From the IMG/VR virus record IMGVR_UViG_2718217713_000004, positions 1 to 33,279 of that record: a DNA stretch of 33,279 nucleotides. The stretch is one strand, 5' to 3'. This DNA comes from a virus (taxonomy: Duplodnaviria > Heunggongvirae > Uroviricota > Caudoviricetes). Position 1 is the first letter of the stretch. The number at the start of each line of letters is the position of its first letter. The position numbers were made by a program, and so were the translations under genes. Shown here piece by piece: positions 2,604 through 29,769 of this stretch. The notes under the pieces were generated by a model. It was given only the letters and a program-made list of their open reading frames with translations, was not told the DNA's origin and ran no database searches.

Positions 2604-3082
2604 TATCCCGCCCCCGTCATACCCGTGAATCTGGTCGCCATACTGCCAGCCTTACCGATGAGCGATTCCGCCTGTTTACCGATATCGCCATAAAGCGCGG
2701 CCAGTGATTCATCAACGCGGGTGAGTGACAGCGTAAAATCAATTTTCCGGGGTGTGCCGTCTGCAAAGAAAATACTCCCTGTTTCACTCACCCTGCTGAT
2801 GACATACATGCCGTAAATCATGCCGGTGCCATCCAGCAACGGCCACGCCCGTCCCTCCTCTGCCATCAGCCTGAGCGTGGTCATCGTCAGCTTGCCGCCG
2901 GTCAGTTCGGGATAAAGCACACCGGCCAGCGTCATGTTTTCCTCACCCACACCGAGAAACTGGTAGGCATCCCGTTTACCGATACGGGAATTTGACGGCC
3001 AGCGATAATCTGATTCACGCTGCATGGTCTGGTGTGGCAGCGTCTGGCGCATAAAAACAAACATACCTAACGCGAGCATCAT
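2603..3082 (-). CDS. U: Tail protein gpU (159 aa)
   Basis: Length, position and sequence match P2 gpU; 1-nt stop/start overlap with D. Confidence 0.9.
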   Translation of the reverse strand: MMLALGMFVFMRQTLPHQTMQRESDYRWPSNSRIGKRDAYQFLGVGEENMTLAGVLYPELTGGKLTMTTLRLMAEEGRAWPLLDGTGMIYGMYVISRVSETGSIFFADGTPRKIDFTLSLTRVDESLAALYGDIGKQAESLIGKAGSMATRFTGMTGAG

Positions 3083-3096
3083 TTTTCGTCACCTCC

Positions 3097-5544
3097 TTAA
3101 CCGTCATGCATCATGCTGGCACGGGCGCGCGCACGTTTATCCCGCTCGTATTTTTCGAGCGCATCCTGTAACTGGCGGTCGAGCTGAGTCCCCGGCGCAG
3201 TACCGCCCGTCAGACTGATGTGATATTCGTTTTTACTCTGGTCCACATAAGAGCGGCCAGCCGGTGCCGTGACCGGCTGATAAGCCTGATAGCCTGCATA
3301 AGAGCTGGTCGCCGGAATATAACCACCGGTGCCATACGTGGCGGCATGAGTCCTTGCTGCGGTCTGGTCAAGTGTGTCTGACTCTTTGTTGATAACACCG
3401 AGTTTTTCCAGTACCCAGTCAATACCGCTGCGCAGTTTGTTGAACGCATTAAGCGGCAGCATCAGCGCGTCAGCCAGTGCCTGCCCGAACATGACCCCCG
3501 TGTCACGGCAACGGTTTAGGGTGTCCTGGGTGGCTTTGACCGGGGCAATCAGGTTTTTAAACCACTGCCACGCGGCCTGTAACTTTTCGCCCAGCCAGTC
3601 AAACACCGGCTTAAGTGGCGTGAACAGTTCCCCCACCGGCGCAAATGCCGCTTTCAGCCCTTCCACCACACCGCCAAAGAATGCGCTGACAGGCTCCCAG
3701 TATTTACGGATAAGCAACGCCCCGGCGACAATGGCGGCCACCACAGCCACAACCGGCCAGCTAATTGCCCCGATGGCCGTCATAACAGCACTGCCTATCG
3801 TCGTGAAGATTGCCCCCATTGCGCCTGCTGCCGCGATAATGGCATTGATGCCGGTGATAACCGGCCAGGCTACGAGGCCAATGGCACCGATGATGCCAGT
3901 AAGCGCCAGCGCGCCACCGACAATGAGGCCGATGGTTGACGCCAGTGATTTGTTTTTCTGGATCCAGCCGTCGAGTTTTAACACATACTTTGTGGCCGTC
4001 TGAGTGAGCTTACGCAGTGCGCCTTCCTGCTGGTCAAACAGGTCTGTCCCCACCGCCTCATAAGCGGACTGAAACTCCTTAAAGTCACCGCCGAGGTTGT
4101 CCTGCATGATATTTACCAGCTCGGCAGTCTTCCCGTCTGAGGCTTTAAACGCAGCGGTCAGTTTGTCCAGCTTTCCGGTTGAGGCGGCAGTCATCAGCAC
4201 GGCGGCGGCTGAGCTGGCCTCCTCCCCGAAAATAGTTTTCATGTATTCAGCCTGCTGGGCAGTACCGAGCCGGTTTTTCTCAAAACTGGCCTGCATTTCT
4301 TTCAGAATGGTAAATATTGGCCGGGTGTTTCCCTTACTGTCTGAGGTTTTCACTCCAAGCTCTTTGAGTGCATCCCATGCTTTTCCCGTCGGTGCCTGCA
4401 GGCGGCTTAACACGGCACGGCTTCCCGTCCCCGCCATTGAGCCTGTGATTTTTGCATCATGCAGCGCCCCGACCATTGCGGCGGTTTCTTCAATGCTGAC
4501 ACCGGCATTTTTTGCCACAGGTGCGGCATAGGTCAGCGCATCGCTCATGCCGTCAAAATCGGCGGCGGTTTTGTTCATCGTCATGGAGAGAACATCCCCG
4601 ATATGAGCGACCTTATCGTTTGAAAGCTGAAAGGCGGATTTCATCCCCATCAGCAGGGCAGCGTTTTCTTCCATCGTGCGACGGTTCGCCAGCGCCATAT
4701 TCAGCGTGACCGGCGTTGCCGCCTGAATGGCATCAACATCCCCACCGGCTTTCGCAATAATAATCTGCGCACCGGCTGCATCATCTGCCGAGGCGGCGGT
4801 ATTGTCGCCGAGCTGGCGCGCCTGTTTGCGTAGTGCAGCCATTTCGGCGGAGTCTTTTGCCACTCCGAGCACGGCCTGCAATTCTGAGTTTTTCTGCGCA
4901 AACTCATAACCGGGCATCAGCAGCTTAACTCCGGCCATCGTTCCCGCCGCCGCAATCCCCACACCGGCAGCGCCCACCGAGGCCATATTTCCTGCCAGTT
5001 CCTTTCCGGCCTGATAACGCTGTTTTACTGCGTTAAGTTTTGCCTGTTGTGCACTGACACGCGCCAGTGCGTCGCGCTGACGGTTAAGCTGTGCGGTGGT
5101 TTCACTGATACGGTTTTTCAGCCCCTGCTCATCATGTGCAAGATTGCGGGTATTAATTCCCACAGCGGCCAGTTCCCGCTGCTGGCGCTTAACGGAATCC
5201 GTCAGGCGGTTATATTTCGCCTGTAAGTCCTCCGCCGCACGCTTTGCGGATTCCAGCACTTTCGCCTGAGCACGGGTCGGACGTTCAGTGTTTTTAAACT
5301 GTGTGGCAAGGGCTTCGGCCTCCTGCCGTGCCTTTTCAAGTGCATGACCAGTCACGGCGAGCTGTGCGCTGGTCTTGCGAAATCCCTCAATACGGGATGC
5401 CTGACCATTCAGCTCGCGCAGTGATTTTTGTGTTTCCCGGATATCCCCCGACAGCGACTTGCTCGCTGTGCGGATGGATTTAAACGGGCGGGATGCCTGG
5501 TCAACAGCCCTGAGCAATACCTGTAATTTTACATTGTTACTCAT
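3097..5544 (-). CDS. T: Tail tape-measure protein gpT (815 aa)
   Basis: Long coiled-coil-rich N-terminus, Ala/Gly-rich hydrophobic central segments, 815 aa as in P2 gpT; start ATG overlaps the E' stop (ATGAGTAA). Confidence 0.9.
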   Translation of the reverse strand: MSNNVKLQVLLRAVDQASRPFKSIRTASKSLSGDIRETQKSLRELNGQASRIEGFRKTSAQLAVTGHALEKARQEAEALATQFKNTERPTRAQAKVLESAKRAAEDLQAKYNRLTDSVKRQQRELAAVGINTRNLAHDEQGLKNRISETTAQLNRQRDALARVSAQQAKLNAVKQRYQAGKELAGNMASVGAAGVGIAAAGTMAGVKLLMPGYEFAQKNSELQAVLGVAKDSAEMAALRKQARQLGDNTAASADDAAGAQIIIAKAGGDVDAIQAATPVTLNMALANRRTMEENAALLMGMKSAFQLSNDKVAHIGDVLSMTMNKTAADFDGMSDALTYAAPVAKNAGVSIEETAAMVGALHDAKITGSMAGTGSRAVLSRLQAPTGKAWDALKELGVKTSDSKGNTRPIFTILKEMQASFEKNRLGTAQQAEYMKTIFGEEASSAAAVLMTAASTGKLDKLTAAFKASDGKTAELVNIMQDNLGGDFKEFQSAYEAVGTDLFDQQEGALRKLTQTATKYVLKLDGWIQKNKSLASTIGLIVGGALALTGIIGAIGLVAWPVITGINAIIAAAGAMGAIFTTIGSAVMTAIGAISWPVVAVVAAIVAGALLIRKYWEPVSAFFGGVVEGLKAAFAPVGELFTPLKPVFDWLGEKLQAAWQWFKNLIAPVKATQDTLNRCRDTGVMFGQALADALMLPLNAFNKLRSGIDWVLEKLGVINKESDTLDQTAARTHAATYGTGGYIPATSSYAGYQAYQPVTAPAGRSYVDQSKNEYHISLTGGTAPGTQLDRQLQDALEKYERDKRARARASMMHDG

Positions 5545-5964
5545 TCGTGTTCCCGCTTCGCCGGAGCGCCTTTTCGCGCCATGTGATGAGTTCGGTCAGG
5601 CTCATGGGATACAGTTCTGATGGCGGCCAGTGAAATATCACTGCCACATCCGCCATCAGGTCATCGACCGACAGATTTTTCGGAAACGTCACTGCACCGA
5701 GTTCGGCGACAAAAAACCGACCACCTTACCGGCCAGCGCCACAAGGTCAGGCAGTTCCAGTGCGGCAACTTCCTGCTCGGTCAGCATCGGTGCCGTCATG
5801 CGCGGCAACACCTTAATTAGTGCATCAACTTCAGAGTTTGCGACCGCTGCCAGACTGACACCGCGCAGCGTCCCGGCATTGGGTTTCATCAGCGTGACCT
5901 GTTCGATGACCTGCTCACCACGCTTGACCGGATTTTCCAGGGTAATGACATTTTCTTTGTTCAT
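5537..5964 (-). CDS. E+E': gpE+E' fusion produced by programmed -1 ribosomal frameshift at T-TTT-TTG (minus strand, plus coordinates 5710..5716); the E' extension ends ...ITWREKALRRSGNTNE and its stop overlaps the T start
   Basis: Slippery heptamer near the 3' end of E and an open -1 frame running to 5537 read directly from the sequence; E/E' frameshifting is established for P2 and analogous to lambda G/GT. Confidence 0.8.
5689..5964 (-). CDS. E: Tail assembly chaperone gpE (91 aa, zero-frame product)
   Basis: MNKENVITLENPVKRGEQVIEQVTLMKPNAG ... 91 aa, matching P2 gpE. Confidence 0.9.
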   Translation of the reverse strand: MNKENVITLENPVKRGEQVIEQVTLMKPNAGTLRGVSLAAVANSEVDALIKVLPRMTAPMLTEQEVAALELPDLVALAGKVVGFLSPNSVQ

Positions 5965-6020
5965 GGTTTTCTCACTTCTGAATCAGGGTTAACCGGTCAG
6001 CCTGGCTGACCGGATGAAAA

Positions 6021-6539
6021 TCACAGGCCGATATTGCGGCGGTGTTGCTCCAGCCGGTCGACGCCGTTCACCTTCTCAATCATGTTGATGGTGTCGATTT
6101 CGACCAGCTCCTTACCGTCCATCGTCAGCCGGAAATAGGTGCAGACCACGGAGATTTTCGACTCGGTGTCTTCTCCCTGTTTACCCTCACCGGTGTCGAT
6201 TTCTTTCTGACGGCCACGCATGACCACTTCGACGGCCACCGTTTCGCCGGTATCGTCGCGCTGGTAAGAGCCTGCAAAACGAATCGGCACGGCATCCACG
6301 CCGGTTGCGGCGTAAAGCTCCCAGATAACCGAATCCGGGAAGCCACCGAGCGACCACTCCATTGACAGCGCATCGTCATCAAGGCCGAGGTCTACCGGTG
6401 CGCTGCCGTTCATCCCCGCACCGCGATAGTTTTCGAGCTTACGGGTCAGTTTTGGCAGCGTGACGGACTTCGCGACGCCCTGATAGCTGTAGCCGTTCAG
6501 AAAGACGTTCATTAACTTGAGTTTGCGCGGCATTGCCAT
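6021..6539 (-). CDS. FII: Tail tube protein gpFII (172 aa)
   Basis: Length, position and sequence match P2 FII. Confidence 0.9.
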   Translation of the reverse strand: MAMPRKLKLMNVFLNGYSYQGVAKSVTLPKLTRKLENYRGAGMNGSAPVDLGLDDDALSMEWSLGGFPDSVIWELYAATGVDAVPIRFAGSYQRDDTGETVAVEVVMRGRQKEIDTGEGKQGEDTESKISVVCTYFRLTMDGKELVEIDTINMIEKVNGVDRLEQHRRNIGL

Positions 6540-6551
6540 CGGTCAGGCTCC

Positions 6552-7742
6552 TTAATTGCTGTTAACCGAGGTGACCAGATTTGCCAGGTATTTATCGGTA
6601 ATACGCTGGCGCAGGGTCAGGTTTTCGAGAGGAGGCACCGGTGTATAGTCGTAGTCGATATACAGTTTTCCGGCCTTGAGGGTTTCCGCATCGTTGGATT
6701 CTTCGCTGAACCAGCATGAGCCATCCACGATATAGCCGTTTGTTTTCAGCTCACGGAATTTGGCATTGATGCCGTCAACGATATCGCGAATCAGCGTTGC
6801 GGTGATGGGCTTGTCCACCGCCCACATGTGCGCCTCAGCCATCGTGTCGGCCAGCACCTGCGCGGTGCGGGTGTAGTTTTCAAAGAGAAACAGTGGGTCA
6901 TCAGAGCAGGTACGGTTACCCCAGAAGCGGAAACCGTCGCGGCGAATCAGCGTAGTGACGCCTGACTCATTAAGCAGGTCAGCATCAGTGCCGGGCTTCT
7001 GCAAATCCCAGAAGACGGATGCACTGATGCCGGTAACACCGTTCACCCCGACGTTGGACAGCGTTTTATGCCAGCCCTGCTCCTGGTCGATTTTAGCGCG
7101 CAGACCCAGCGCACGGGCGGTGGCATACGCGGTGGCGGTGGTACTGGTAACCGTATCCCATGCGAGGAAATCCGGCCAGATGACCATCAGCTCACGCTGG
7201 CTGAAATTCTGGCGGTAGGCTTTCACCTCGGAAATGGTTTTACAACCCCATGCGCTGATATACCCGAAGGCATTCAGTTCCTGGCATACCGATGCCAGTG
7301 CGACGGCGACCTCTTTGGTGTCCAGTCCCGGTACGCCGAGAATACGCGGTTTAACGCCGGTAACCGACTCAGCGCCCATCAGGGCTTTCAGTCCGGTGTA
7401 CTGACCGTTTTCGTCAGTGGTGCCGATGATATTGGAAACGGTCTGCGCGAGTTTCGTTTCTTCGTCGTCGCCTGTTCCGTCTTCCACGCGCACGACAACG
7501 GTGACCGGTTTTGACTGGTCACCGATTGCCTGCAACGATGCCGCCAGCGTGCCTTTTTTACCGGCCTTTGCAATCGCGCTCTGCACATTGGTGATCAGCA
7601 CCGGTTTATTGACGGGGAAGGTTTCCGCATCCGCATCGCTGGCCGTGCAGACCATGCCAACAATGGCGGTGGATACGGTGGAAATGACGCGGGTGCCGTC
7701 GTTAATCTCCAGCACCTGCACGCCGTGATGATAGTCACTCAT
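6552..7742 (-). CDS. FI: Contractile tail sheath protein gpFI (396 aa)
   Basis: Length, position and sequence match P2 FI. Confidence 0.9.
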   Translation of the reverse strand: MSDYHHGVQVLEINDGTRVISTVSTAIVGMVCTASDADAETFPVNKPVLITNVQSAIAKAGKKGTLAASLQAIGDQSKPVTVVVRVEDGTGDDEETKLAQTVSNIIGTTDENGQYTGLKALMGAESVTGVKPRILGVPGLDTKEVAVALASVCQELNAFGYISAWGCKTISEVKAYRQNFSQRELMVIWPDFLAWDTVTSTTATAYATARALGLRAKIDQEQGWHKTLSNVGVNGVTGISASVFWDLQKPGTDADLLNESGVTTLIRRDGFRFWGNRTCSDDPLFLFENYTRTAQVLADTMAEAHMWAVDKPITATLIRDIVDGINAKFRELKTNGYIVDGSCWFSEESNDAETLKAGKLYIDYDYTPVPPLENLTLRQRITDKYLANLVTSVNSN

Positions 7743-7783
7743 CCGTTTAACTCCGTGGTTAATGGGTGAGTGATATTTTCAGT

Positions 7784-7799
7784 TGTGCCGGAGATGTCA
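7784..7799 (-). promoter_or_regulatory. Candidate Ogr-responsive late promoter element upstream of FI (minus-strand TGACATCTCCGGCACA; shares TGWCA-N5-GGCACA with the element upstream of V)
   Basis: Partial dyad about 50 nt upstream of the FI start codon, nearly identical in form and spacing to the one upstream of V. Confidence 0.4.
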
Positions 7800-7801
7800 G
7801 G

Positions 7802-8395
7802 CTATTTGTCCCGGTTGGCTAAGGGATGACACAATTTATTCTTTGTCGCTGATGAGGGGAATTTTTTATAGAGCGTGGACAGGCCAATATCAAAAATCAG
7901 CGCCACACGTTGACGAGATTCCCCCGCAGCCAGCAACCGTCCGACCTGCTCCCACTCACCCGCAGTGAGTTTCGGTCGTCTGCCACCAATACGACCTTTG
8001 GCTCTGGCCGCTTCCAGTCCGGCGCGTGTCCGCTCGACAATGAGTTCTCGCTCCATTTCAGCCAGGGCACCCATCACATGAAAGAAAAAACGCCCCATCG
8101 GCGTGCTGGTATCAATAGCATCCGTCAGGCTGCGAAAATTAACGCCGCGTTCGCGCAGTTCCTCAACCAGAATGACCAGATGCCGCATACTACGCCCCAG
8201 CCTGTCCAGCTTCCAGACCACCAGTGTATCCCCCTCAGATAATGTTCTGAGCAGTTTTTTCAGTCCCGGTCGGTCGGACTTTGTGCCGCTGATTTTATCC
8301 TCAAAAATCAGCTCACATCCTGCACACTCCAGCGCATTACGCTGCAATTCCGTATTCTGGTCATTTGTTGATACGCGGACATAGCCAATAAGCAT
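7802..8395 (-). CDS. Serine recombinase, DNA invertase of the Hin/Gin/Cin/Pin family (197 aa)
   Basis: N-terminus MLIGYVRVSTNDQ with catalytic Ser in RVST, resolvase/invertase core and C-terminal HTH region (GLSTLYKKF); sits adjacent to an invertible tail-fibre segment. Confidence 0.9.
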   Translation of the reverse strand: MLIGYVRVSTNDQNTELQRNALECAGCELIFEDKISGTKSDRPGLKKLLRTLSEGDTLVVWKLDRLGRSMRHLVILVEELRERGVNFRSLTDAIDTSTPMGRFFFHVMGALAEMERELIVERTRAGLEAARAKGRIGGRRPKLTAGEWEQVGRLLAAGESRQRVALIFDIGLSTLYKKFPSSATKNKLCHPLANRDK

Positions 8396-8450
8396 GATGG
8401 ATCCCCTGAATAAAAACCAGAGATGATGCCACTTGCCCGTTATCTCTGCA

Positions 8451-8476
8451 TTTTCATAAACGTTGGTTTGGGAGAA
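8451..8476. repeat. Invertase crossover site, right copy (ttttcataaacg-tt-ggtttgggagaa), hix/gix-like 26-bp site
   Basis: Two 12-bp half-sites around a 2-bp core; half-site pattern TTnTCnnAAACC is my summary of Hin-family sites; inverted copy at 10314..10339 shares 14 identical bp. Confidence 0.7.
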
Positions 8477-8839
8477 GCGGCAAAACTTGGCGCTGCTGTA
8501 GGGGTAACGGGTAATACCGGGAGAATATTGATCCCGGCTTTAATTGGTGGGGTTGAACAAAATATCATTTTCCAGTGGGTCTCTGGATTTCTTTCCGATT
8601 CGACTGGAGTAGCAACCGTGACATTACCTATGGCATTTCCTAACGCTCTGTTTCATGCCACTGCGATTGACTCAGGTGCTTCTGCTAGCTCGTGGAATGG
8701 ATCGGCCGGCACAACGTGGGGCTTCGATATTGGTGGCTCTACCAGAACGACAGTCAAAGTTCGTGTTTTAAGAACAACTAATGGGACTTCATGGGCGGGT
8801 GCTTCAGCTGCCGGTTGTTTATTCGCAATAGGTTATTAA
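8477..8839 (+). CDS. Silent alternative tail-fibre C-terminal domain (Sv'); promoterless and startless, in frame with the fibre constant region after inversion
   Basis: Reading frame ...GLGE-AAKLGAAVGVTGNTG... is continuous through the crossover site and shares the GLGE junction with gene H; the ORF-track N-terminus (MMPLARYLCIF) is not a real start. Confidence 0.7.
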   Translation, partial: AAKLGAAVGVTGNTGRILIPALIGGVEQNIIFQWVSGFLSDSTGVATVTLPMAFPNALFHATAIDSGASASSWNGSAGTTWGFDIGGSTRTTVKVRVLRTTNGTSWAGASAAGCLFAIGY

Positions 8840-8840
8840 C

Positions 8841-9272
8841 ATGAAAACAAGATACTTTTATGACGCCGTTGATAACGGATTTTATATTGAACCTGAAAGC
8901 AGGTTTATTCCTGAATCAGCTATTGAAATCAGTGTTAACCTCTACAACCAATTTGCTGGTATTGCCTGGCCTGAAGGTAAAATGCTTGGTGCAGATAGCA
9001 CTGGACTGCCCGCTTGGGTCGATGCGCCGCCTCCAACGCATGAAGAGCTTATTGAAATTACTCAATCAGAAAGACAGCTACTAATTAACCAGGCCAACGA
9101 ATACATGAACAGTAAACAATGGCCCGGTAAAGCCGCTATTGGTCGTCTGAAAGGTGACGAACTGGCGCAATATAATTTGTGGCTGGATTATCTGGACGCA
9201 CTGGAACTGGTTGATACTTCCGGTGCGCCAGATATTGAATGGCCTACGCCTCCGGCAGTTCAGGCCAGATGA
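8841..9272 (+). CDS. Alternative tail-fibre assembly chaperone (Tfa', 143 aa)
   Basis: Conserved Tfa C-terminus ...LWLDYLDALELVDTSGAPDIEWPTPP; 3' end convergent with and overlapping the minus-strand Tfa. Confidence 0.8.
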   Translation: MKTRYFYDAVDNGFYIEPESRFIPESAIEISVNLYNQFAGIAWPEGKMLGADSTGLPAWVDAPPPTHEELIEITQSERQLLINQANEYMNSKQWPGKAAIGRLKGDELAQYNLWLDYLDALELVDTSGAPDIEWPTPPAVQAR

Positions 9273-9846
9273 CATCCGGCGCGGTGCTGGTATCTGTTGC
9301 CGTCAACGCGTCAATATAATCCAGCGCAGCGTTAAGCCGGGTGGTTTCTGCCTGCGTCAGCTTCCGCCCGGCCTGCAATTTCAACTGAATCAGACTAATG
9401 GAAACCATTGCAGCATCAATCAGTGACTGACGCTGTGCTTCTGCCGCGTCTACTGCGGCGCTATGCTGTGCCTCGGTATCTGTCACCCATTTCTCACCAT
9501 CCCATTTATCGTATGGAGATAAAGGGGCGATAGTGGTTGTATTTTCAGGGTAATCACCCGGAGATGTGATTTCTTTTGATTCTCCTGTTTCGGTGCTATA
9601 GACGATTTCACCGCGATGGTCTGGCACATATTCCCATGAGTTAAAATCTGCAGAACGGCGGATAACATAACCCTCCCTATGTATACCAGGTGCATCCAGG
9701 CAGGAATATGCCGGGATACCAACACCAACGGCAAGATATTCACTTGAAGTGGAAATATATTCCCGAGTTTCACCATCATAGTTATAAACAGTAATATCCC
9801 CTGCCTTCGTAGCAATAAACTCGCTATTTAATACAGCGTTATCCAT
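9244..9846 (-). CDS. G: Tail-fibre assembly chaperone (gpG-like Tfa, 200 aa), currently in the expressed orientation
   Basis: C-terminus ...LNAALDYIDALTATDTSTAPDVIWPELP typical of Tfa/gpU(Mu)/gpG(P2) family; TAATG stop/start overlap with H. Confidence 0.85.
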   Translation of the reverse strand: MDNAVLNSEFIATKAGDITVYNYDGETREYISTSSEYLAVGVGIPAYSCLDAPGIHREGYVIRRSADFNSWEYVPDHRGEIVYSTETGESKEITSPGDYPENTTTIAPLSPYDKWDGEKWVTDTEAQHSAAVDAAEAQRQSLIDAAMVSISLIQLKLQAGRKLTQAETTRLNAALDYIDALTATDTSTAPDVIWPELPEA

Positions 9847-11153
9847 TATGCAGCCCTCACAATGTAGTTAAATGCAACGTTCACCGGGCGAGTTTCATTG
9901 GCGGTATTTGCCACCCTTGACATATCGAAATCAAATGTTGTGACACCATGCCCTCCACTACCTACGCCTGTAACCGCTGTTAATCCAGTAGTCAGATAGT
10001 TATTACCGTTATGACGAAATGGACCACTGGTAACTAAATCTTTAAAAAGCTGAATTTTCCCTATTGAACCAGTGACGTTTTGCATTGCATGCTCCTGTGA
10101 AGCCAATAGAATCCTTCCGGGGTCAATGCCTCTCCCGTCATCCCAGCCACGAATAAACTCACCGCGTAAATCAGGCAATTTATTTGTCGGGTAAGCCTTT
10201 GCCAGTTCCGGGTATTCTTCAGCAGAAAATGCCGCACCGTTGCATTTCAGCCAGCCTGTTGGCGGAGTGGCGGAAGGCCACGGAACAGGCACACCAACGG
10301 GTAATGCCGAACCTTCTCCCAAACCAAGGTATGCGAGAAGACCAGCTACATCCTTTCCACTCAAATGAGTCAGCGTCTCATCCAGTGGCTGCTTACCTGA
10401 CAGCGCATTGTTAATGGTGGTGCTGAATTTCGGGTCATTGTTAATGGCCGCGGCAATTTCTTTCAGTGTGTCCAGCGTGGCTGGCGCACCATTAATCAGA
10501 GCGGTAATAGCAGCCTGAACAAACGCAGTGGTCGCAATCCGCGTGGTGTTATTTCCTGCGGCAGGCGTCGGCGCTTTTGGTTCTCCGGTAAATGTCGGAT
10601 TATGTTTCTGCGCATACTGGGTATGAGGATCCTGTGCGGCAATGTGGTTTCTCATCTGGTCATCCACATACAGCCTTAATTCCAGGACTTCATCATCCAC
10701 GTATTTACGGGTCGCCAGTACCACCGACGGGTCGATTTTCAGCGTGATGGCTTCGGTATTCGTGACAACCAGAATCATGCGGATAGTCTGGGTACGACCA
10801 CTGCCTTCCTGCAACTGCGGTTTGTACGTTTCCGGGCAGTTCGCCACCGCAATGAGTACGCCTTCATCATCATAAAGCCCAATCTCACGGATCCAGAATC
10901 CGCCCTCGTTCTCAGGGATGATTTGCTCCGCAATAATCTGGCTCTGGTTGTTCGGGTCAACACTCAGAAGATTCAGCGGCGCGATGCGTTTCTGGTTAAT
11001 CAGTTTTGTCTGTGCCGGGTCTGGTGTCGGCAAGACACCATTCGCATCACCAACGGCCATTTGCGTCAGATTCAGCTTACTGCCGAGCATCGTCGCGTTA
11101 GCCAGCCGTGCAGCGCCCTGATTAGTCAGAATGGCGTAGTATTTCACTGTCAT
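9846..11153 (-). CDS. H: Tail-fibre protein gpH (435 aa): constant N-terminal part (about 10340..11153) fused to the currently expressed variable C-terminus (9846..10313)
   Basis: Fibre-like sequence with collar-type motif PVGVPVPWP...WLKCNGA; crossover site lies inside the gene at the LLAYLGLGE junction. Confidence 0.85.
   Translation of the reverse strand: MTVKYYAILTNQGAARLANATMLGSKLNLTQMAVGDANGVLPTPDPAQTKLINQKRIAPLNLLSVDPNNQSQIIAEQIIPENEGGFWIREIGLYDDEGVLIAVANCPETYKPQLQEGSGRTQTIRMILVVTNTEAITLKIDPSVVLATRKYVDDEVLELRLYVDDQMRNHIAAQDPHTQYAQKHNPTFTGEPKAPTPAAGNNTTRIATTAFVQAAITALINGAPATLDTLKEIAAAINNDPKFSTTINNALSGKQPLDETLTHLSGKDVAGLLAYLGLGEGSALPVGVPVPWPSATPPTGWLKCNGAAFSAEEYPELAKAYPTNKLPDLRGEFIRGWDDGRGIDPGRILLASQEHAMQNVTGSIGKIQLFKDLVTSGPFRHNGNNYLTTGLTAVTGVGSGGHGVTTFDFDMSRVANTANETRPVNVAFNYIVRAA
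10314..10339. repeat. Invertase crossover site, left copy (ttctcccaaacc-aa-ggtatgcgagaa), inverted relative to 8451..8476
   Basis: Fourteen bp (ttctcccaaaccaa) identical to the reverse complement of the right site; located inside H at the constant/variable boundary. Confidence 0.7.
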
Positions 11154-22920: not shown

Positions 22921-23062
22921 ACACCCCGTCATCACGCCCTCACACGCTCACCACCGCAAAAAACACCCCGCAGACACACCAACGCCTCAACGGGCAGACT
23001 AAGCGCCGTCACGACGCGCTGAGACGCTGAAAAAATAAAATCAGCACCACCGCCAGCGCGCA

Positions 23063-23081
23063 GTGCTTTCCCCGCCTCGCC
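23063..23081. other. cos: cos cohesive-end site (19 nt; reverse complement reads GGCGAGGCGGGGAAAGCAC)
   Basis: Exact match to the 19-nt P2 cohesive end as I recall it, located just beyond Q as in P2. Confidence 0.7.
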
Positions 23082-23324
23082 CGCCCGCTTCATGGGGCGG
23101 TTTTAATGCAGTTGCACAGCCATGTCAAAGCCATGTCAACACTAGCAGTATGTAAAAAGAGCAGATATAAGAAACAAATGCAGTTTCATGCAAAAAGCGA
23201 CACACATCATGTCATGAAACAAAGCCGCTAATGAACACTTGCTTTGGTTATCTTAAGGTTTTATCTTCAGCCTAACCTATTGATTGCATGAAACTAAAAT
23301 GAACTCTCAGCAAGGAACGACTAT

Positions 23325-25283
23325 ATGTCAGATTTCGAAATTAAAATTGATTTGAATGTGCTAAATCACCTAGGGATGAGTCTCTATTCCAATACTCCCG
23401 CGGTACTAACTGAGATTATATCAAATGCATGGGATGCAGATGCTCAAAATGTAGAAATTACACTTGATGTTGAGAAAGGAGAGGTCATCATTAAAGATGA
23501 TGGTCATGGCATGTCTAAAGATGACATTATTAATAAGTTCCTAAAAGTCGGTTATGCTCGCAGGGAACATGGAAGAGCCAAAAGCGATCATCTAAAACGT
23601 CAAGTTATGGGCAGAAAAGGTATTGGTAAGCTTGCCATGTTTTCACTTGCCAATAAAATCCAAGTTTATTCGTACAAAAAGGGGGAACAGCCTCAGGCCT
23701 TTGAGGTAGATGTCAAAGATTTACAGCAAAGTATCAAAGAATCAAAAAACTATATTGCTGACTCCCTTGAAATACCCGAAAATCTTGCTTACGGCACTAC
23801 AATTAAATTATTTGAACTAAAAAAAGCCATTGATAGGACTCAAACTTACCTCAGAAAGCGAATAGCTCGTCGATTTAGCATTATTGGCCCCAACCATAAC
23901 TTTACAGTTAAAATTAATGGGACCGATATTACACCGGCAGATAGAGATTTCCTTTCAGATCTCGAGTTCATTTGGGAATTTGGCGAATCCGACCCTGAAA
24001 GGATAAAATCCTGCACAAACATCACACAAAAAAACATATTACCAAATACTATTACCTTTGAAGGAAAAGATGTAAAAGTTAGTGGGTACATTGGCAGTGT
24101 AGTTAAGCCATCACAGTTAAAGAAAGACCCTGAAATATCTAACAACAGCATTACTGTAATCTCTCACGGACGTGTTTTTGAGGAGGACATATTATTAGAA
24201 TTTGGAAGTGCTAAAGTATTCACCAATTATCTGGTCGGTGAAATAGTCGCCGATTTTCTAGATGATAACGAAAAGCCTGATATGGCAACATCTTCTCGTC
24301 AAAAACTACAACAGAATGATCCAAGATACCCTGTACTTAAAGGTTTTCTGGAAAGAACGCTACAACTAATCGATAAAGATTGGGATAAATGGAGACGCGA
24401 AAAAGGAGTAAATGAAGTTAAAAGTAATACTCCAATAGTAAGTGAATGGCTGAATTCTCTCAAAAAACATGAGAGAGAAAGTGCCGAAAAGTTAATTGGA
24501 CGAGTAAACACATTCCGTTTTTCTGGTAATGAGGAAGAACAAAAAGCAGCAAGAAAAACCGTATTAAAAAATACGGTATTAGCCTTTGAAAGACTTAGAA
24601 TTCAAGACAACCTTGATGCATTAGATAAAATAAGCAACCTTCAATCAGAAAATTTTAAAGATGTATTTGCATCTGTCAATGACATTGAAGCAAGCATGTT
24701 TTATGAAATTACTTCGCAACGCCTTAAAGTAATTGAAAAATTCCAAAAAATAACTGATGAAAATCAGCTTGAAAGAGCTGTACAAATGTATTTATATGAT
24801 CATTTATGGTTATTGGATCCTTCATGGGAAAGAGTCACAGGCACATCTGTTATGGAGCAAACATTGACCAAGGAACTAAAACAGATAAACCCTGATGCTG
24901 CTAGCGGTGCTCGTATTGATATCGCTTTCAAAACCGTTTCTGGCAAGCATGTAATTATTGAGATGAAACGACCTAAAGTGCACCCAGATATAATGAACCT
25001 AGTCGCACAAGGTAATAAATATGTACAGGCAACGACACAATGGTTCTCCAATAACCCTAAAAATTGCCCAGGTGGAAATATACCGCATATAGAAGTAATA
25101 TTCCTGGTTGGCTCTGGATATTTACAAGAGAACCAACACTTTATAAATATGCAATTACTTTCTATCAATGGAAAAATATTGACATATAATGACCTAATCG
25201 TGCAATCAAAACAAGCCTATGCTGAATATCAAGACAAAAAGAATGATGCAGCTAGAATTATGAAAATAGTTGAGGGAATCTAA
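23325..25283 (+). CDS. Hypothetical GHKL-family ATPase (HATPase_c / Bergerat fold, MutL-MORC-like N-terminal domain) with a C-terminal PD-(D/E)xK-like nuclease motif, 652 aa; candidate restriction or defence effector
   Basis: N box EIISNAWDA, G1 box IIKDDGHGM, G2 box GRKGIGKLAMF near the N-terminus; C-terminal ARIDIAF...HVIIEMKRPK fits D...(D/E)xK; Shine-Dalgarno aagga upstream of ATG; AT-rich codon usage unlike the phage backbone. Confidence 0.6.
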   Translation: MSDFEIKIDLNVLNHLGMSLYSNTPAVLTEIISNAWDADAQNVEITLDVEKGEVIIKDDGHGMSKDDIINKFLKVGYARREHGRAKSDHLKRQVMGRKGIGKLAMFSLANKIQVYSYKKGEQPQAFEVDVKDLQQSIKESKNYIADSLEIPENLAYGTTIKLFELKKAIDRTQTYLRKRIARRFSIIGPNHNFTVKINGTDITPADRDFLSDLEFIWEFGESDPERIKSCTNITQKNILPNTITFEGKDVKVSGYIGSVVKPSQLKKDPEISNNSITVISHGRVFEEDILLEFGSAKVFTNYLVGEIVADFLDDNEKPDMATSSRQKLQQNDPRYPVLKGFLERTLQLIDKDWDKWRREKGVNEVKSNTPIVSEWLNSLKKHERESAEKLIGRVNTFRFSGNEEEQKAARKTVLKNTVLAFERLRIQDNLDALDKISNLQSENFKDVFASVNDIEASMFYEITSQRLKVIEKFQKITDENQLERAVQMYLYDHLWLLDPSWERVTGTSVMEQTLTKELKQINPDAASGARIDIAFKTVSGKHVIIEMKRPKVHPDIMNLVAQGNKYVQATTQWFSNNPKNCPGGNIPHIEVIFLVGSGYLQENQHFINMQLLSINGKILTYNDLIVQSKQAYAEYQDKKNDAARIMKIVEGI

Positions 25284-25288
25284 TTATA

Positions 25289-25312
25289 CCCCCCTGTTTT
25301 TTGACAGGGGGG
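25289..25312. terminator. Hairpin between the convergent GHKL and methyltransferase genes (stem cccccctgt/acagggggg, U-rich loop); terminator-like, bidirectional
   Basis: Perfect 9-bp GC stem read from the sequence; no clean post-stem T-tract, so terminator function is tentative. Confidence 0.45.
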
Positions 25313-25324
25313 ATGACATAAGTT

Positions 25325-26374
25325 TTAAATATTCATTTCTGACAAATGTTTTAAAATAGTTTCACCTACGACCTCACCAAGCCTAACAGGAACAGCATTA
25401 CCTATTAAACGCGCAACTGTTCTCATTTCAATTTTTACATCATCAGGCCAAAACTCATACTTTTCTGGGAATGACTGTAATAGCGCAGCCTCTCTTAAAC
25501 TTAATGCTCTATTTTGGACAGGGTGCCCAAAGCGTCCATTCCCATATCCAATACATTGAGTTGTAATTGTCGGTCCAAGTTTATCCCAACACATTCTCCC
25601 ATATACAGCAGTATATGTAGAACCACTTTCTTTTGTATGACATTTTGCTCTTAGCTCTTCTGGCCAATCACGCCATGTTCCACCAGGTTTTGATGCCATT
25701 ATTCTTTTTATATTAATATCAGATAATGATGCAGAGCGATGTAGTTTATCTCCAGCGTGAACAGCACCGGCACTAATTTCAGGAAGATTACCGATTATAT
25801 CTCGCACCGTTTTATAATCATTCTTCTCATGAGTTGGTGGAATTATTTCTATTTCTCCATATTTTGATGCCAATAACACTAATCTTGAACGACTTTGTGC
25901 CATTCCATAGTCTGGACAAAACACCACCCCATACCAAACAAAATAGCCATCATTTTTAAGAGACTTAATGAAGTCCTTAAAAACCTTATGATTCACCACT
26001 CGGGGAACGTTTTCCATTGTAATAATATCTGGCTTTGCAAATTTAATTTGCTTAGCAAAGCTATAAAGCAAAGACCATCTTTTATCTTTTGAACGTACTA
26101 CCCCTAATTTAGCACTATTGGTATAGCTTGAAAAAGGTTGGCATGGGGCACAACCAGCCAAAACTCGAACCTTCGCTCCTTCGAAATATTTAACTAATTC
26201 GCCGTCCTCAATGTCTGTAACACTTTTCTGGACAAAGAGTGATTTATTATTTGTCTCATAGGCAAATCGACAGGCTGCATCTATATCATAACCTGCAACT
26301 ACATTAAGCCCCGACTTCTGAAGACCGTGAGTCAAGCCACCCGCGCCACAGAATAAATCAACAACCTTAATCAA
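25325..26374 (-). CDS. DNA (cytosine-5)-methyltransferase, Dcm-type
   Basis: Motif I DLFCGAGG, motif IV PCQPFS, motif VI ENV, C-terminal GNAVP in canonical order; start assigned to TTG at 26374..26372, preceded by AAGGAGG with 6-nt spacing (ORF track begins further upstream at 26476, also TTG). Confidence 0.85.
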   Translation of the reverse strand: MIKVVDLFCGAGGLTHGLQKSGLNVVAGYDIDAACRFAYETNNKSLFVQKSVTDIEDGELVKYFEGAKVRVLAGCAPCQPFSSYTNSAKLGVVRSKDKRWSLLYSFAKQIKFAKPDIITMENVPRVVNHKVFKDFIKSLKNDGYFVWYGVVFCPDYGMAQSRSRLVLLASKYGEIEIIPPTHEKNDYKTVRDIIGNLPEISAGAVHAGDKLHRSASLSDINIKRIMASKPGGTWRDWPEELRAKCHTKESGSTYTAVYGRMCWDKLGPTITTQCIGYGNGRFGHPVQNRALSLREAALLQSFPEKYEFWPDDVKIEMRTVARLIGNAVPVRLGEVVGETILKHLSEMNI

Positions 26375-26440
26375 GATAAACCTCCTTCTAATGCTGTGGG
26401 GATTGTAGCATTGTTCTTTCTCATCATCGATGTTTACTTG

Positions 26441-26471
26441 ATGCTTGATTTGTGAATACAAAATCAAGCAT
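26441..26471. promoter_or_regulatory. 31-bp palindrome ATGCTTGATTT-N9-AAATCAAGCAT overlapping a promoter-like TTGACA upstream of the methyltransferase; candidate operator
   Basis: Perfect 11-bp inverted arms read from the sequence; AT-rich with no T-tract (not terminator-like); on the minus strand TTGACA overlaps the first arm. Confidence 0.45.
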
Positions 26472-26485
26472 GTCAATCATTATTG

Positions 26486-28765
26486 TTAGTTTGTTTCAAA
26501 TCCCGCCCAACCATCAGAAATCGGATATGAAAACGTTTTCCCATCATAATTTACGGTCGCGCCACGCGCCAGCGCCTCAAGCTCCCATCGCTGCGGCCTG
26601 ATACCGTTCTGAGCAAGGTCAACGCGGATACGGGTAATTTGCATTCGTTCCGACCGGGCCAGTCTGGCCGATGGTGCAATTTCATGTGGTTTTAACGAGC
26701 TTCCGTTTCTTTGCTGACGATTTGGCGTTCTCCGACCGTGTTTTAATGCACCTCTGAGCGCCCTCACGACCTCCGGGTCACTCCATTCGATAACACTGTC
26801 ATCAACCAGATTAAGCACTGCTGCGGCGTGCTCAGAAGGTGTGGGAGCCGGTAACGAAGTATCACCACCGGTGAGTTTTCCACAGTTATTGACAGGACTC
26901 CGAGGCGCGGCGATGCCGCTTTTTAAAGTCAAAGGCTCAACGACCGGCACTTTCGGCACAATGCGCCAGTCCGTCGTTCTGGTGATATGAATATGACGCG
27001 CGCCGAGATGCGGCGCGTAAATGCCGACCACTCTCTCGACTTCTTCCTCGTACTCGTTAACGTCATCCGACGGGCTACGGGCAACCCTGACAGTCTGACA
27101 ATCGCGCGGAACATTTGCCCCACCCTGCGCGCTGATATACAACGCAAAATCACCACTGTCTGCGGCAGCGCGTGCAGCCTCGACGCGTTCGTCAAACTCA
27201 TCAGCAATGCTGACGCCGCGAGGCAATTTGCGTAGTTCACGGTAAGCCCCCATTGTCGGCAGGCCAACCGTTTTAAATTGCGGAATGCGCCACGTTGACG
27301 CCCATGCGGTAACAGCCGCGGCAGTGTCTTTCAGCGGCCTGCCGGTATCGTTATCGAGCTGACCATCCAGTGCATAGCCATCGATGTTTTTTGAAATGTA
27401 TTTCGCGATATACCCCGCAGCACCGCCCCGGTTAAGGTGTTTTGCCTGAAAACGGTTTCGCGCAGCTCCTCTTTCGTCGCCATCCTCTTTGAGCGCGTAG
27501 CGACGCATGATTTCAATAATCTGGTTACGCTGGCGTGGATTACAAAAAAGCATCATATGCCAGTGCGGCGTTCCGTCGTGGTGTGGCTCGACGACTCGCA
27601 AACCGTAGACCTGTAAATCATTATCCTTGAATGCCGTGCGCATCAGGCTCCAGATACGGCAGAGATAACGCTGCGCATCCTTTGGATTAAATGCCTCATC
27701 GTTCCAGCCGTGATTTAGCTGGACGGTTTTACTTTCTCCTTTTCCGACCTGACGTGTCGGGTGATACTTTGACGGCGCGGTCAGCGTGATAAACATCCCC
27801 ACATCACCCTCTGCTGCGGCGTAACGCTCAATACCGGCGATGGTGTTCATCAGCTCCATCCGGCGAATTTCTGGATTAGAAATACTGCCCATCACCTTAC
27901 TGATAAGGTCGATGCGCTCGCCGGTTTCCTTGTTTTCAAGGTCACACGATTTAAGAAACTCCAGATTTGCCTGGCGGCGCGCACGCACATCACGAATGGC
28001 ATGTTTACTGGCATAAGGAGAACGGTCTTTATTGACCTCCCCGACAGCAATCAGTAACGCCTCATGCCAGCGCATACGCTGGCCTTTAAGCTGATGAGTC
28101 CACCACTCATCGTTAAACAGACGGGCAATGGCAGAATATGCCTGCCTCGTGGTTATCTGTCCTTTACGGTATTTTTTCCAGTAGAGCGGGGAAATATTGA
28201 AAGCACGTGCAGCGCCAGCAACATGACCATACAGGTGAGTCTGCGCCTCATCCGTAAACAGCGATTCTTTTTCGCCATGTGCATCAACCCATGCATCGCA
28301 GAGTTCCTCATACATCATGAAAAGCTGCGATGAGATACGGGCGGCAAACTTTTTCAGCTCCTTGTCATTCATTCCAGGCAGGCGCGCATAGTGGTCACGC
28401 TCTGCCAGAAACAGCAACGACGCGTCGGTGTTCATTTCATGGCGCTGATTCACGCGCTCAATGCGCGGCCATAAACGACGCTGAAAAGTAGATGTGAGGA
28501 AATAAAACCCGTGCACCGGGCTTTTATTGCGCCGGATGTAGTCATAGCGTGAAGTAAACAGCGAGCGCAAAAAGTAAGGCAGGCGGTTAATCGTGGATAA
28601 AACACCTTGCACCTGACGCATCTCGTCACGTGTAAGGGGTCTTTCGCGCCCGACGGCCTCGCGTGGCGCGTTCCATGCATAAGCACCGGTAAACGCCTTA
28701 CCGGTGCCTGCAGCAAATGCTGACGGAGGTACGCAGGTGTATTGCTCCTGGAAAGAATGACTCAT
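26486..28765 (-). CDS. A: Replication initiation protein gpA (rolling-circle nicking endonuclease, 759 aa)
   Basis: Length and sequence match P2 gpA; start overlaps the stop of the upstream gene (ATGA). Confidence 0.9.
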   Translation of the reverse strand: MSHSFQEQYTCVPPSAFAAGTGKAFTGAYAWNAPREAVGRERPLTRDEMRQVQGVLSTINRLPYFLRSLFTSRYDYIRRNKSPVHGFYFLTSTFQRRLWPRIERVNQRHEMNTDASLLFLAERDHYARLPGMNDKELKKFAARISSQLFMMYEELCDAWVDAHGEKESLFTDEAQTHLYGHVAGAARAFNISPLYWKKYRKGQITTRQAYSAIARLFNDEWWTHQLKGQRMRWHEALLIAVGEVNKDRSPYASKHAIRDVRARRQANLEFLKSCDLENKETGERIDLISKVMGSISNPEIRRMELMNTIAGIERYAAAEGDVGMFITLTAPSKYHPTRQVGKGESKTVQLNHGWNDEAFNPKDAQRYLCRIWSLMRTAFKDNDLQVYGLRVVEPHHDGTPHWHMMLFCNPRQRNQIIEIMRRYALKEDGDERGAARNRFQAKHLNRGGAAGYIAKYISKNIDGYALDGQLDNDTGRPLKDTAAAVTAWASTWRIPQFKTVGLPTMGAYRELRKLPRGVSIADEFDERVEAARAAADSGDFALYISAQGGANVPRDCQTVRVARSPSDDVNEYEEEVERVVGIYAPHLGARHIHITRTTDWRIVPKVPVVEPLTLKSGIAAPRSPVNNCGKLTGGDTSLPAPTPSEHAAAVLNLVDDSVIEWSDPEVVRALRGALKHGRRTPNRQQRNGSSLKPHEIAPSARLARSERMQITRIRVDLAQNGIRPQRWELEALARGATVNYDGKTFSYPISDGWAGFETN

Positions 28766-29769
28766 TCACATACACCGGCATAGACACTACTGCAAACTGA
28801 CTTATCATTCACCGAAGCCAGCAAATCAAACTGTGCCCCGCCACGCGTGGTCATCGCCCAGTCACGATAAGACTCAATTCCGTAAGCATCGACAGTAATA
28901 ATATCAATGCGGCGTTCCGCACGACGCGGGTCATGAGTTGACGGGAAGAAAGTAGAATTTCCGCGTCTGGAGCATGCGGCGACAAGTCGCTCCCATTCCG
29001 CAACACGCTTAACCTCTTCCGGCCAGCGACTAAAAATTTCAGCTAATTCAGACTTTCTGGCGTGGATGCAGGGCATACAACCGACACGACTGCATCCCTG
29101 CTGGTATAACGGATTAGGTTTAATTCCATGACGTCTTGCAAATGCAAATACCTCCTCATGCGTCCAGTTCAGAATAGGACGGTATACATGGAGCCCGGGC
29201 GTATTGTCCGCATCCTCTTCCCAGGCAGGCAGACCCGCGCGCGCAGGAGACTCCTGAGCGCGAACCCCCTGCCAGCTAATTACCTCATCAAACTCATTAA
29301 GCGCAGGTAACACGACCTGAGTACGTACTGGCTCATGTTTAAGGTCAAAAGTGCAAAATCTGGCTTTAGTGGAAGGAAATCGCCCTTTCCACATGCACAA
29401 ATCAAGAAATGGGATACCAGTAGGCTTGAGAATTTCCAGCGCACAATTGATGCGCTCTGCCGCTTCCCCCGGAGACATTCCGCACTCTTCAACCAGAGAA
29501 ACAGGCCATTTCTCAGCAATAAACTTGCGCTTACCTTCAATCTGTCGGGAGAAGTCAGCTTTAACCCGTTTAACCGGCCCGAGTCGGTTCTCCAGATAAT
29601 CGAGATACTCCATTGTCTGCGGATGCTCATGCCCGGTGTCTGCAAAAACCGGCAAAAAATGCACACCGCTTTCAATACCAACAAGCCATTGAGCAAGGCT
29701 ATCCTTTCCGCCAGAAACAGAAATAATATTGATAGAGCTTTCAGCTCGGCAGCGGGTATCAACTATCAT
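28762..29769 (-). CDS. PP-loop ATP pyrophosphatase, PAPS-reductase-like family protein (335 aa); accessory gene absent from the P2 reference early operon
   Basis: PP-loop ISVSGGKDS near the N-terminus and Cys cluster CSRVGCMPC near the C-terminus; ATGA overlaps with orf83 (29766..29769) and A (28762..28765). Confidence 0.7.
   Translation of the reverse strand: MIVDTRCRAESSINIISVSGGKDSLAQWLVGIESGVHFLPVFADTGHEHPQTMEYLDYLENRLGPVKRVKADFSRQIEGKRKFIAEKWPVSLVEECGMSPGEAAERINCALEILKPTGIPFLDLCMWKGRFPSTKARFCTFDLKHEPVRTQVVLPALNEFDEVISWQGVRAQESPARAGLPAWEEDADNTPGLHVYRPILNWTHEEVFAFARRHGIKPNPLYQQGCSRVGCMPCIHARKSELAEIFSRWPEEVKRVAEWERLVAACSRRGNSTFFPSTHDPRRAERRIDIITVDAYGIESYRDWAMTTRGGAQFDLLASVNDKSVCSSVYAGVCE

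Follow-up and report, generated by a model that had tools for sequence, protein, structure and literature searches.

The 33,279-nucleotide DNA of IMG/VR virus record IMGVR_UViG_2718217713_000004 (hereafter the window) carries, between the cos site and gene A of a P2-like prophage, an AT-rich cassette that encodes a 652-residue nuclease and a C5-cytosine DNA methyltransferase. We assign this cassette, with a probability of roughly 85%, to the two-gene type II restriction-modification systems of the HgiDII/BbrUII family, carried here as cos–gpA cargo of the prophage. Both proteins are intact family members with all catalytic residues, and the pair that they form is conserved, foreign in origin and situated in a defence hotspot. 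A preliminary description, made from the letters of the DNA, had put the cassette forward as a candidate uncharacterised system; the nuclease is, however, already named by NCBIfam (NF050001), the pair is named by RefSeq and PADLOC and listed in Rousset et al. 2022, and the system (HgiDII/BbrUII family), its architecture (paraMORC3, with a Shedu-type nuclease) and the hotspot are known. The layout is that of a type II system, with separate nuclease and methyltransferase genes and no helicase, specificity or translocase subunit. The two genes, which according to the open reading frame (ORF) list and RefSeq are the only ones between cos and gene A, are as follows.

23325 to 25283, plus strand: restriction endonuclease gene, 652 residues, BbrUII/HgiDII family, paraMORC3 architecture (NF050001, PADLOC, RefSeq)
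25325 to 26374, minus strand: C5-cytosine DNA methyltransferase gene, 349 residues, M.HgiDII-like (PF00145, PADLOC, motifs)

The identity of the nuclease is established by the NCBIfam equivalog NF050001 ("BbrUII/HgiDII family restriction enzyme"), which the protein matches with 751.4 bits against a curated cutoff of 550, over residues 4–651 and model positions 1–658 of 659. PADLOC scores the pair as REase_II (nuclease, E-value 2.3e-91) and MTase_II (methyltransferase, E-value 3e-88), and RefSeq entry WP_001279022, which is the exact 652-residue protein, is named BbrUII/HgiDII family restriction enzyme in E. coli genomes. Pfam finds HATPase_c_3 only (residues 26–149, E-value 2.3e-25). In an alignment of 31 homologues of 44–82% identity, the GHKL residues E30, N34 and D37, the DxGxG motif at 58–62 (D58, G60, G62) and the GxxGxG motif at 96–101 (G96-R-K-G99-I-G101) are invariant, as is a C-terminal nuclease signature comprising E483, D532, E546-x-K548 and Q562. 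As these positions are invariant, the PD-(D/E)xK-like motif is real and under selection, and E483, D532, E546, K548 and Q562 are candidate catalytic residues. An AlphaFold2 model was built from the same alignment (mean predicted local distance difference test score (pLDDT) 79, predicted template modelling score 0.64), and the protein divides into four parts.

23325 to 23819, plus strand: GHKL (Bergerat-fold) ATPase domain, residues 1–165
23841 to 24263, plus strand: S5-like transducer (middle) domain, residues ~173–313
24324 to 24752, plus strand: all-helical linker, residues ~334–476 (predicted secondary structure and pLDDT)
24759 to 25280, plus strand: Shedu-type (SduA_C/DUF4263) PD-(D/E)xK nuclease domain, residues ~479–652

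In having an S5-fold domain after its GHKL domain, the protein agrees with the paraMORC3 family. The last third of the linker is the least confident part of the model, with residues 449–462 below a pLDDT of 50, whilst structural matches of the C-terminal domain include SduA, NucS, BspD6I and FokI. Pfam SduA_C (PF14082) is reached by seven of the 31 family members (best E-value 2.6e-6); the 652-residue protein itself matches neither this model nor the PADLOC Shedu models at E-values up to 0.1, and a sequence search of the PDB gave no solved relatives beyond the Hsp90 N-domain (E-value about 1e-8). Profile searches and structure prediction thus place a GHKL domain at the N-terminus and a restriction-endonuclease fold at the C-terminus, in line with the Bergerat-fold ATPase and PD-(D/E)xK-like motif that the preliminary description had read from the sequence. 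Its statement that the architecture had no named match is superseded by the full-length membership of NF050001. Its separation of the protein from Old, Gabija, PARIS and Septu holds, with the PADLOC models of Old, Tin, Gabija, PARIS and Septu matching neither cassette gene, and the protein is likewise neither a mismatch-repair protein nor a sensor kinase, the latter being rejected on both score and architecture. MzaB, the sole PADLOC match of the nuclease apart from the REase_II models, was also considered and rejected (a marginal 17 bits in PADLOC, and 31.7 bits against a cutoff of 850 for the NCBIfam MzaB model).

The second gene encodes a canonical C5-cytosine methyltransferase, as first described. 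The Pfam DNA_methylase model (PF00145) matches with an E-value of 1.3e-55 over model positions 1–323 of 324, and the motifs follow in canonical order (FxGxG at F8, PC at 77–78, ENV at 121, QxRxR at 160, RE at 294 and GNAV at 325), so that motifs I, IV, VI, VIII, IX and X are all present, with a variable region between VIII and IX. Comparable PADLOC matches are to the DrmMII and DruM models, likewise 5-methylcytosine (m5C) enzymes; the RefSeq name is "DNA cytosine methyltransferase", and a 58%-identical Vibrio homologue (P0207) is labelled "methyltransferase HgiDII" by its source, a label based on similarity. The start codon is most likely the TTG at 26374, giving 349 residues, and not the first in-frame TTG at 26476, which would give 383: AGGAGG lies six bases upstream of the former, the RefSeq start is identical and the Pfam domain starts there.

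Evidence that the two genes belong together comes from 80 viral loci of IMG/VR with relatives of the nuclease (24–100% identity), which were searched by tblastn with the methyltransferase of the window. A methyltransferase homologue is directly adjacent in 79 of these, usually within 120 bp; the restriction (R) and modification (M) genes are convergent in relatives of at least 44% identity and mostly in tandem, M then R, in more distant ones. Five further contexts were taken from contigs encoding nuclease homologues of 44–68% identity. The same convergent pair is found on an Alcanivorax chromosome, whereas in a metagenome-assembled gammaproteobacterial genome (L010) a gene for Vsr, the very-short-patch repair protein that is the usual companion of m5C methyltransferases, lies between R and M (L010:6035–6436); IMG/VR loci with R–M gaps of ~440–540 bp may hold a Vsr gene too. 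In Shewanella baltica the pair sits between the repressor and the integrase of a P2-like prophage, in Proteus mirabilis in the portal–gpA position of such a prophage, and in Gallibacterium between the lysogeny module and tail gene D of an HP1/P2-like prophage. The cassette type is also found next to the repressor of a Vibrio cholerae P2-like prophage. Linkage that persists over such a range of identity, whatever the gene order and in many contexts, is to be expected of a functional restriction-modification pair and speaks against genes that are independent of each other, and the logic of modification coupled to a nuclease, which the preliminary description had proposed, is upheld by its retention in all but one of the related phage loci. 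The differing positions of the cassette type in the P2-like prophages of Gallibacterium, V. cholerae, Shewanella and Proteus (L005–L007, L009, L011 and L012–L013) suggest that this phage group captured it repeatedly.

Within E. coli, the cassette occurs at ≥99.9% identity in 30 of 5,426 complete genomes, where PGAP gives the nuclease gene its family name in most listed records and calls it "ATP-binding protein" in the others. It is identical in the isolated phage PhiR44_1, annotated there as "ParaMORC3" beside "Dcm protein", and Table S5A of Rousset et al. 2022 lists the exact protein pair at the P2 hotspot. Two strongly diverged GHKL-nuclease and m5C-methyltransferase pairs were observed in other E. 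coli P2-like phages, one in L049/L051 (R at 6001–7932, M at 4914–5933) and a second in L083 (R at 6001–7863, M at 4929–5954). Both occupy the same gpQ–gpA hotspot as tandem M-then-R pairs, opposite in orientation to the cassette of the window, on phage backbones with gpA 97% and gpQ 99% identical to those of the window phage. One of these nucleases is 37% identical to the 652-residue protein and falls inside NF050001 (783 bits), whereas the other is 26% identical and scores 325 bits, below the cutoff.

The position of the cassette is defined by two landmarks on its left side, by the end of gpQ and by gene A on its right.

23064 to 23082, no strand: P2-type cos, GTGCTTTCCCCGCCTCGCC, letters read directly; left landmark of the hotspot
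23083 to 23119, no strand: last conserved phage-backbone bases after cos, from comparison with peduoviruses bearing other cargo

The window runs from the host gene fieF (1–903) into a complete P2-like prophage, ogr to int, integrated between fieF and cpxP, and the 3.5-kb stretch compared is 100% identical to the chromosome of E. coli strain C11. Terminase (gpP) and portal (gpQ) lie on the plus strand and end at 22893, and the sequence GTGCTTTCCCCGCCTCGCC, which we take to be the P2 cohesive-end (cos) sequence, directly adjoins the island on its left. Gene A, with a Pfam Phage_GPA match of E-value 4e-124, lies on the minus strand with its stop at 26486. As the end of gpQ, cos and the stop of gene A flank the cassette, it occupies exactly the gpQ/cos–gpA interval, the cos–A hotspot of the preliminary description. 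This interval is a hotspot of variable, mostly defensive cargo, in which phage P2 carries old and tin (Rousset et al. 2022). The proteins of P2 old/tin, and of the EcoO109I type II system of P4-like satellites, are unrelated to the pair described here.

The guanine-plus-cytosine (GC) content is 0.35–0.42 in each 500-nt interval of 23001–26500 and 0.51–0.58 in both flanks, and the island as a whole (23083–26485) has 0.371 compared with 0.538 in the rest of the window. At third codon positions the GC content is 0.286 in the nuclease gene and 0.257 in the methyltransferase gene, compared with 0.71, 0.65 and 0.54 in the backbone genes for terminase, portal and A, respectively. The island is occupied by two convergent ORFs, 23325–25283 on the plus strand (652 residues) and 25325–26476 on the minus strand, with stop codons 41 bp apart. 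Only positions 1–34 or 1–37 of a 23083–26485 query are common to other peduoviruses with different cargo, and the imported DNA is therefore taken to begin at ~23120. At 23118–23139, exactly at the junction of backbone and imported AT-rich DNA, there are two tandem copies of an 11-nt unit, AGCCATGTCAA, which may have been left by recombination or may serve as a binding site. Two convergent genes, an AT-rich island with A/T-ending codons and horizontal acquisition had all been part of the preliminary description, and each is borne out, the last by the composition break together with the hotspot position. These data support the cassette as horizontally acquired cargo at the known gpQ/cos–gpA hotspot of P2-like phages.

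From what is known of the family, methylation by the second gene product would shield the chromosome and the prophage, whereas the 652-residue enzyme would cut unmarked DNA, such as that of superinfecting phages and plasmids, through its C-terminal PD-(D/E)xK domain. The lysogen would benefit by exclusion of other phages and possibly by stabilisation of the prophage through post-segregational killing. That the latter is the main role of the cassette, i.e. that it is a selfish addiction module killing cells that lose the prophage rather than a phage defence, is a possibility to which we give less than even weight. Type II restriction-modification systems in general cause post-segregational killing, and the cassette resides in a mobile element and has clearly moved among P2-like phages of several genera; the hotspot is, however, dominated by anti-phage systems. 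Such a role would concern the selective benefit of the cassette and not its identity, and is compatible with its assignment as a type II restriction-modification system.

The comparison with characterised members bears on what the system recognises. NF050001 is named after HgiDII of Herpetosiphon as well as after BbrUII, and R.HgiDII was described as a two-domain type II restriction endonuclease with an N-terminal GHKL domain (Orlowski and Bujnicki 2008), as is found in the 652-residue protein. The C-terminal domain of R.HgiDII was assigned no fold in 2008, whereas that of the window protein is a PD-(D/E)xK domain of the Shedu type; host phylum and genomic setting also differ, the present cassette being cargo of a P2-like prophage. 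The m5C methyltransferase M.HgiDII has been characterised and has the target GTCGAC, and the Vibrio homologue annotated as HgiDII-like, mentioned above, links it to the methyltransferase of the window. The other namesake, BbrUII (BbrII) of Bifidobacterium breve UCC2003, is one of three working restriction barriers in that strain and blocks transformation, and its methyltransferase has been applied to pre-methylate plasmids; BbrUII is chromosomal and actinobacterial, whereas the window cassette is prophage-borne.

By homology with HgiDII, the recognition site of the cassette is probably GTCGAC, and the methyltransferase would then 5-methylate a cytosine in this short palindrome. The target-recognition region (motifs VIII–IX) is 47–68% identical among NF050001-linked methyltransferases, i.e. 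as conserved as the catalytic parts, and 35–39% identical in the sister group, whose nucleases score below the NF050001 cutoff. It is rather unlikely, then, that the cassette is a system of the BbrUII/HgiDII family directed at another site, although NF050001 extends to proteins only 31–37% identical to the 652-residue protein, all above its cutoff, and the specificity of restriction enzymes can shift within a family; the diverged pairs in the same E. coli P2 hotspot, at least two in number, may reflect specificity diversification. Besides the conservation of the target-recognition region, the two namesakes speak against a different site: HgiDII and BbrUII, from Chloroflexi and Actinobacteria, reportedly both recognise GTCGAC, of which the target of M.HgiDII is the one confirmed.

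The architecture of the nuclease allows for a different division of labour between the two genes. The paraMORC3 class was defined by GHKL and S5 domains followed by a C-terminal restriction-endonuclease fold with an E-D-ExK signature, and its members occur in proteobacterial restriction-modification contexts and sometimes stand-alone (Iyer, Abhiman and Aravind 2008). The 652-residue protein has the same architecture, although the class includes stand-alone members and its name is silent on sequence specificity. One stand-alone protein of GHKL and DUF4263 domains, VcSduA of Vibrio cholerae (Shedu type I-D, formerly annotated as paraMORC3), protects against phage, and its defence is abolished by E27A and by K557A (Adams et al. 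2025). VcSduA is similar in size to the 652-residue protein and has the same order of GHKL and DUF4263 PD-(D/E)xK domains, and its E27 and K557 presumably correspond, by motif position, to E30 and K548. It acts alone, however, and accounts of it mention neither a methyltransferase nor a cytosine methylase; since it defends without one, the GHKL and DUF4263 class does not by itself imply methylation-sensitive, site-specific cutting. A V. cholerae homologue of the window nuclease (P0047) was considered as VcSduA and rejected, as it sits in a K139/P2-like prophage beside cI and not in VSP-II. The SduA proteins of Bacillus cereus and E. coli have different N-terminal sensor domains and are single-gene, tetramer-forming systems. 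Gu et al. 2023 list GHKL-containing Shedu proteins, which they class as sensor-regulated nucleases, and place 602 Shedu genes inside restriction-modification loci.

Given its Shedu-type nuclease domain, the 652-residue protein could accordingly be a type I-D nuclease that senses infection through its GHKL domain, with a methyltransferase that has a separate job, perhaps the protection of phage DNA from host restriction enzymes, and no restriction-modification pair at all. The activity of VcSduA alone, the class drawn up by Gu et al. and the stand-alone paraMORC3 genes are all in keeping with such a protein. We nevertheless consider it improbable because of the linkage data, i.e. an m5C methyltransferase that adjoins the nuclease in the window and in nearly all relatives, at 24–100% identity and in two orders, and a Vsr gene inserted between the pair in one locus. 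The protein also lies above the curated cutoff of a model named for two characterised type II restriction enzymes, whereas the PADLOC Shedu models leave it unmatched. A housekeeping role, as a GHKL repair factor of the MutL type or as a chaperone of the HtpG/Hsp90 type, can be excluded despite weak N-terminal matches to MutL and HtpG models (20–31 bits) and to Hsp90 structures, and despite source records that label homologues "High temperature protein G" and "DNA mismatch repair protein", as the scores (20–25 bits for MutL against cutoffs of 180–937, and 31 for HtpG against 371) concern the ATP-binding domain only, the C-terminal nuclease belongs to another fold class, and the gene is foreign in composition, located in a prophage hotspot and tied to a methyltransferase.

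Several points weigh against the assignment of the cassette as a restriction-modification system with the specificity of HgiDII. Our literature search found no experiments on this E. coli enzyme, and the defence afforded by VcSduA, a related GHKL and DUF4263 protein, requires no methyltransferase. The proposed site GTCGAC is derived from homology only; its avoidance in the window (three observed, 10.6 expected under a Markov model) was considered as a test of specificity and rejected, because GGCGCC, CAGCTG, CCATGG and others (observed/expected: 0/17.7, 1/15.6 and 0/6.0 for the three named) show at least as strong a depletion, and that of GTCGAC is hence not diagnostic. GAGCTC (1/8.1) and CTGCAG (5/13.5) are strongly under-represented as well, a pattern that would fit a phage backbone which has long avoided restriction. 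The base modified by M.BbrUII is disputed, being N6-adenine or 5-methylcytosine (PMC5829577 against PMC5867850), and papers may differ in how they number the three B. breve UCC2003 systems. Finally, inspection of the cos–gene A interval by eye revealed no gene for a controller (C) protein, and the assignment does not account for which of M and R is expressed first. As gene A lies upstream of the methyltransferase and in the same direction, at a distance of 111 bp, read-through from the early operon might, speculatively, give methyltransferase-first expression on infection.

Inspection of the intergenic DNA revealed the following elements, all of which are candidates from sequence.

23312 to 23316, plus strand: ribosome-binding site AAGGA of the nuclease gene, read in the sequence
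25289 to 25312, no strand: hairpin with a perfect, GC-rich 9-bp stem (CCCCCCTGT and ACAGGGGGG, 6 nt apart), between the stop codons
26381 to 26386, minus strand: AGGAGG ribosome-binding site of the methyltransferase, six bases upstream of the TTG
26402 to 26410, minus strand: extended -10 element TGCTACAAT, candidate methyltransferase promoter by consensus match only
26441 to 26471, no strand: perfect 11-bp inverted repeat (ATGCTTGATTT, 9 nt, AAATCAAGCAT) just past the gene A stop

The CAAGGA upstream of the nuclease ATG is conserved in four related cassettes, and upstream of the methyltransferase, whose ribosome-binding site is a strong one, GGAGG or GGGAGG is kept in three of five aligned related cassettes (L020, L022 and L070). 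In the same three, on diverged phage backbones, the TG-n-TACAAT of the -10 element has been carried along with the cassette. The hairpin between the stop codons is a candidate two-way terminator, a role suggested by its position and structure since it has no canonical T-run. The inverted repeat at 26441–26471, flanked by the gene A stop on one side and the promoter region of the methyltransferase on the other and likewise lacking a T-run, is a candidate for the end of the A transcript or for an operator, and it is not conserved in the aligned related cassettes. For the nuclease gene we claim no promoter, because a sigma-70 scan gave 9 sites as against 10.8 in shuffled sequence. Upstream of this gene, an inverted repeat of GTTTCATG and CATGAAAC was observed at 23183–23220, together with a TTCATGCAG-like element that is conserved in four related cassettes on diverged backbones; the two may represent a regulatory site. 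A hypothetical ORF that is annotated ahead of the nuclease gene in PhiR44_1 (locus 3024–3149) is probably spurious.

Two further regions of the prophage lie outside the cassette. Directly upstream of gene A, and overlapping it by 4 bases as part of the early operon, is a gene on the minus strand (28762–29769) for a 335-residue protein of the PAPS-reductase family (PF01507, E-value 1.4e-35), which might have a DNA-modification or anti-defence function in the P2-like phage. A recombinase-family gene (7802–8395, minus strand) adjoins oppositely oriented tail-fibre and tail-fibre-assembly genes, and this region (7802–11153) resembles the invertible segments, Mu G or P1 C, that switch host range.

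As a locus, the cassette adds one more P2-like prophage with a restriction-modification system in the cos-proximal hotspot and mostly confirms existing annotation, although it can shape the entry of phages and plasmids into its carriers, ~0.5% of E. coli strains. What interest remains lies instead in the enzyme class, namely in what a GHKL and S5 ATPase contributes to a type II restriction enzyme, given that Shedu-type systems use this nuclease module with no methyltransferase. The fold, and parallels with MORC, MutL and VcSduA, make it probable that the GHKL and S5 module dimerises on ATP, and the dimer may be a clamp or gate through which the binding of DNA activates the nuclease, as proposed for VcSduA; a search of the literature found no biochemical test of such ATP-driven gating for any family member. 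We tentatively suggest, as an idea well short of an even chance, that HgiDII-family enzymes join an ATP-gated DNA clamp, akin to MORC, to a nuclease of the Shedu type, which would make the present cassette a methylation-controlled Shedu. If so, stand-alone GHKL-Shedu proteins such as VcSduA would be linked to classical restriction-modification, restriction in vivo would need ATP binding or hydrolysis by E30 and the residues of motifs I–III, and the enzyme might require two sites, or might trap DNA topologically before it cuts. Being identical in the phage isolate PhiR44_1 and 30 complete genomes, the cassette is a convenient model for this question of ATPase function.

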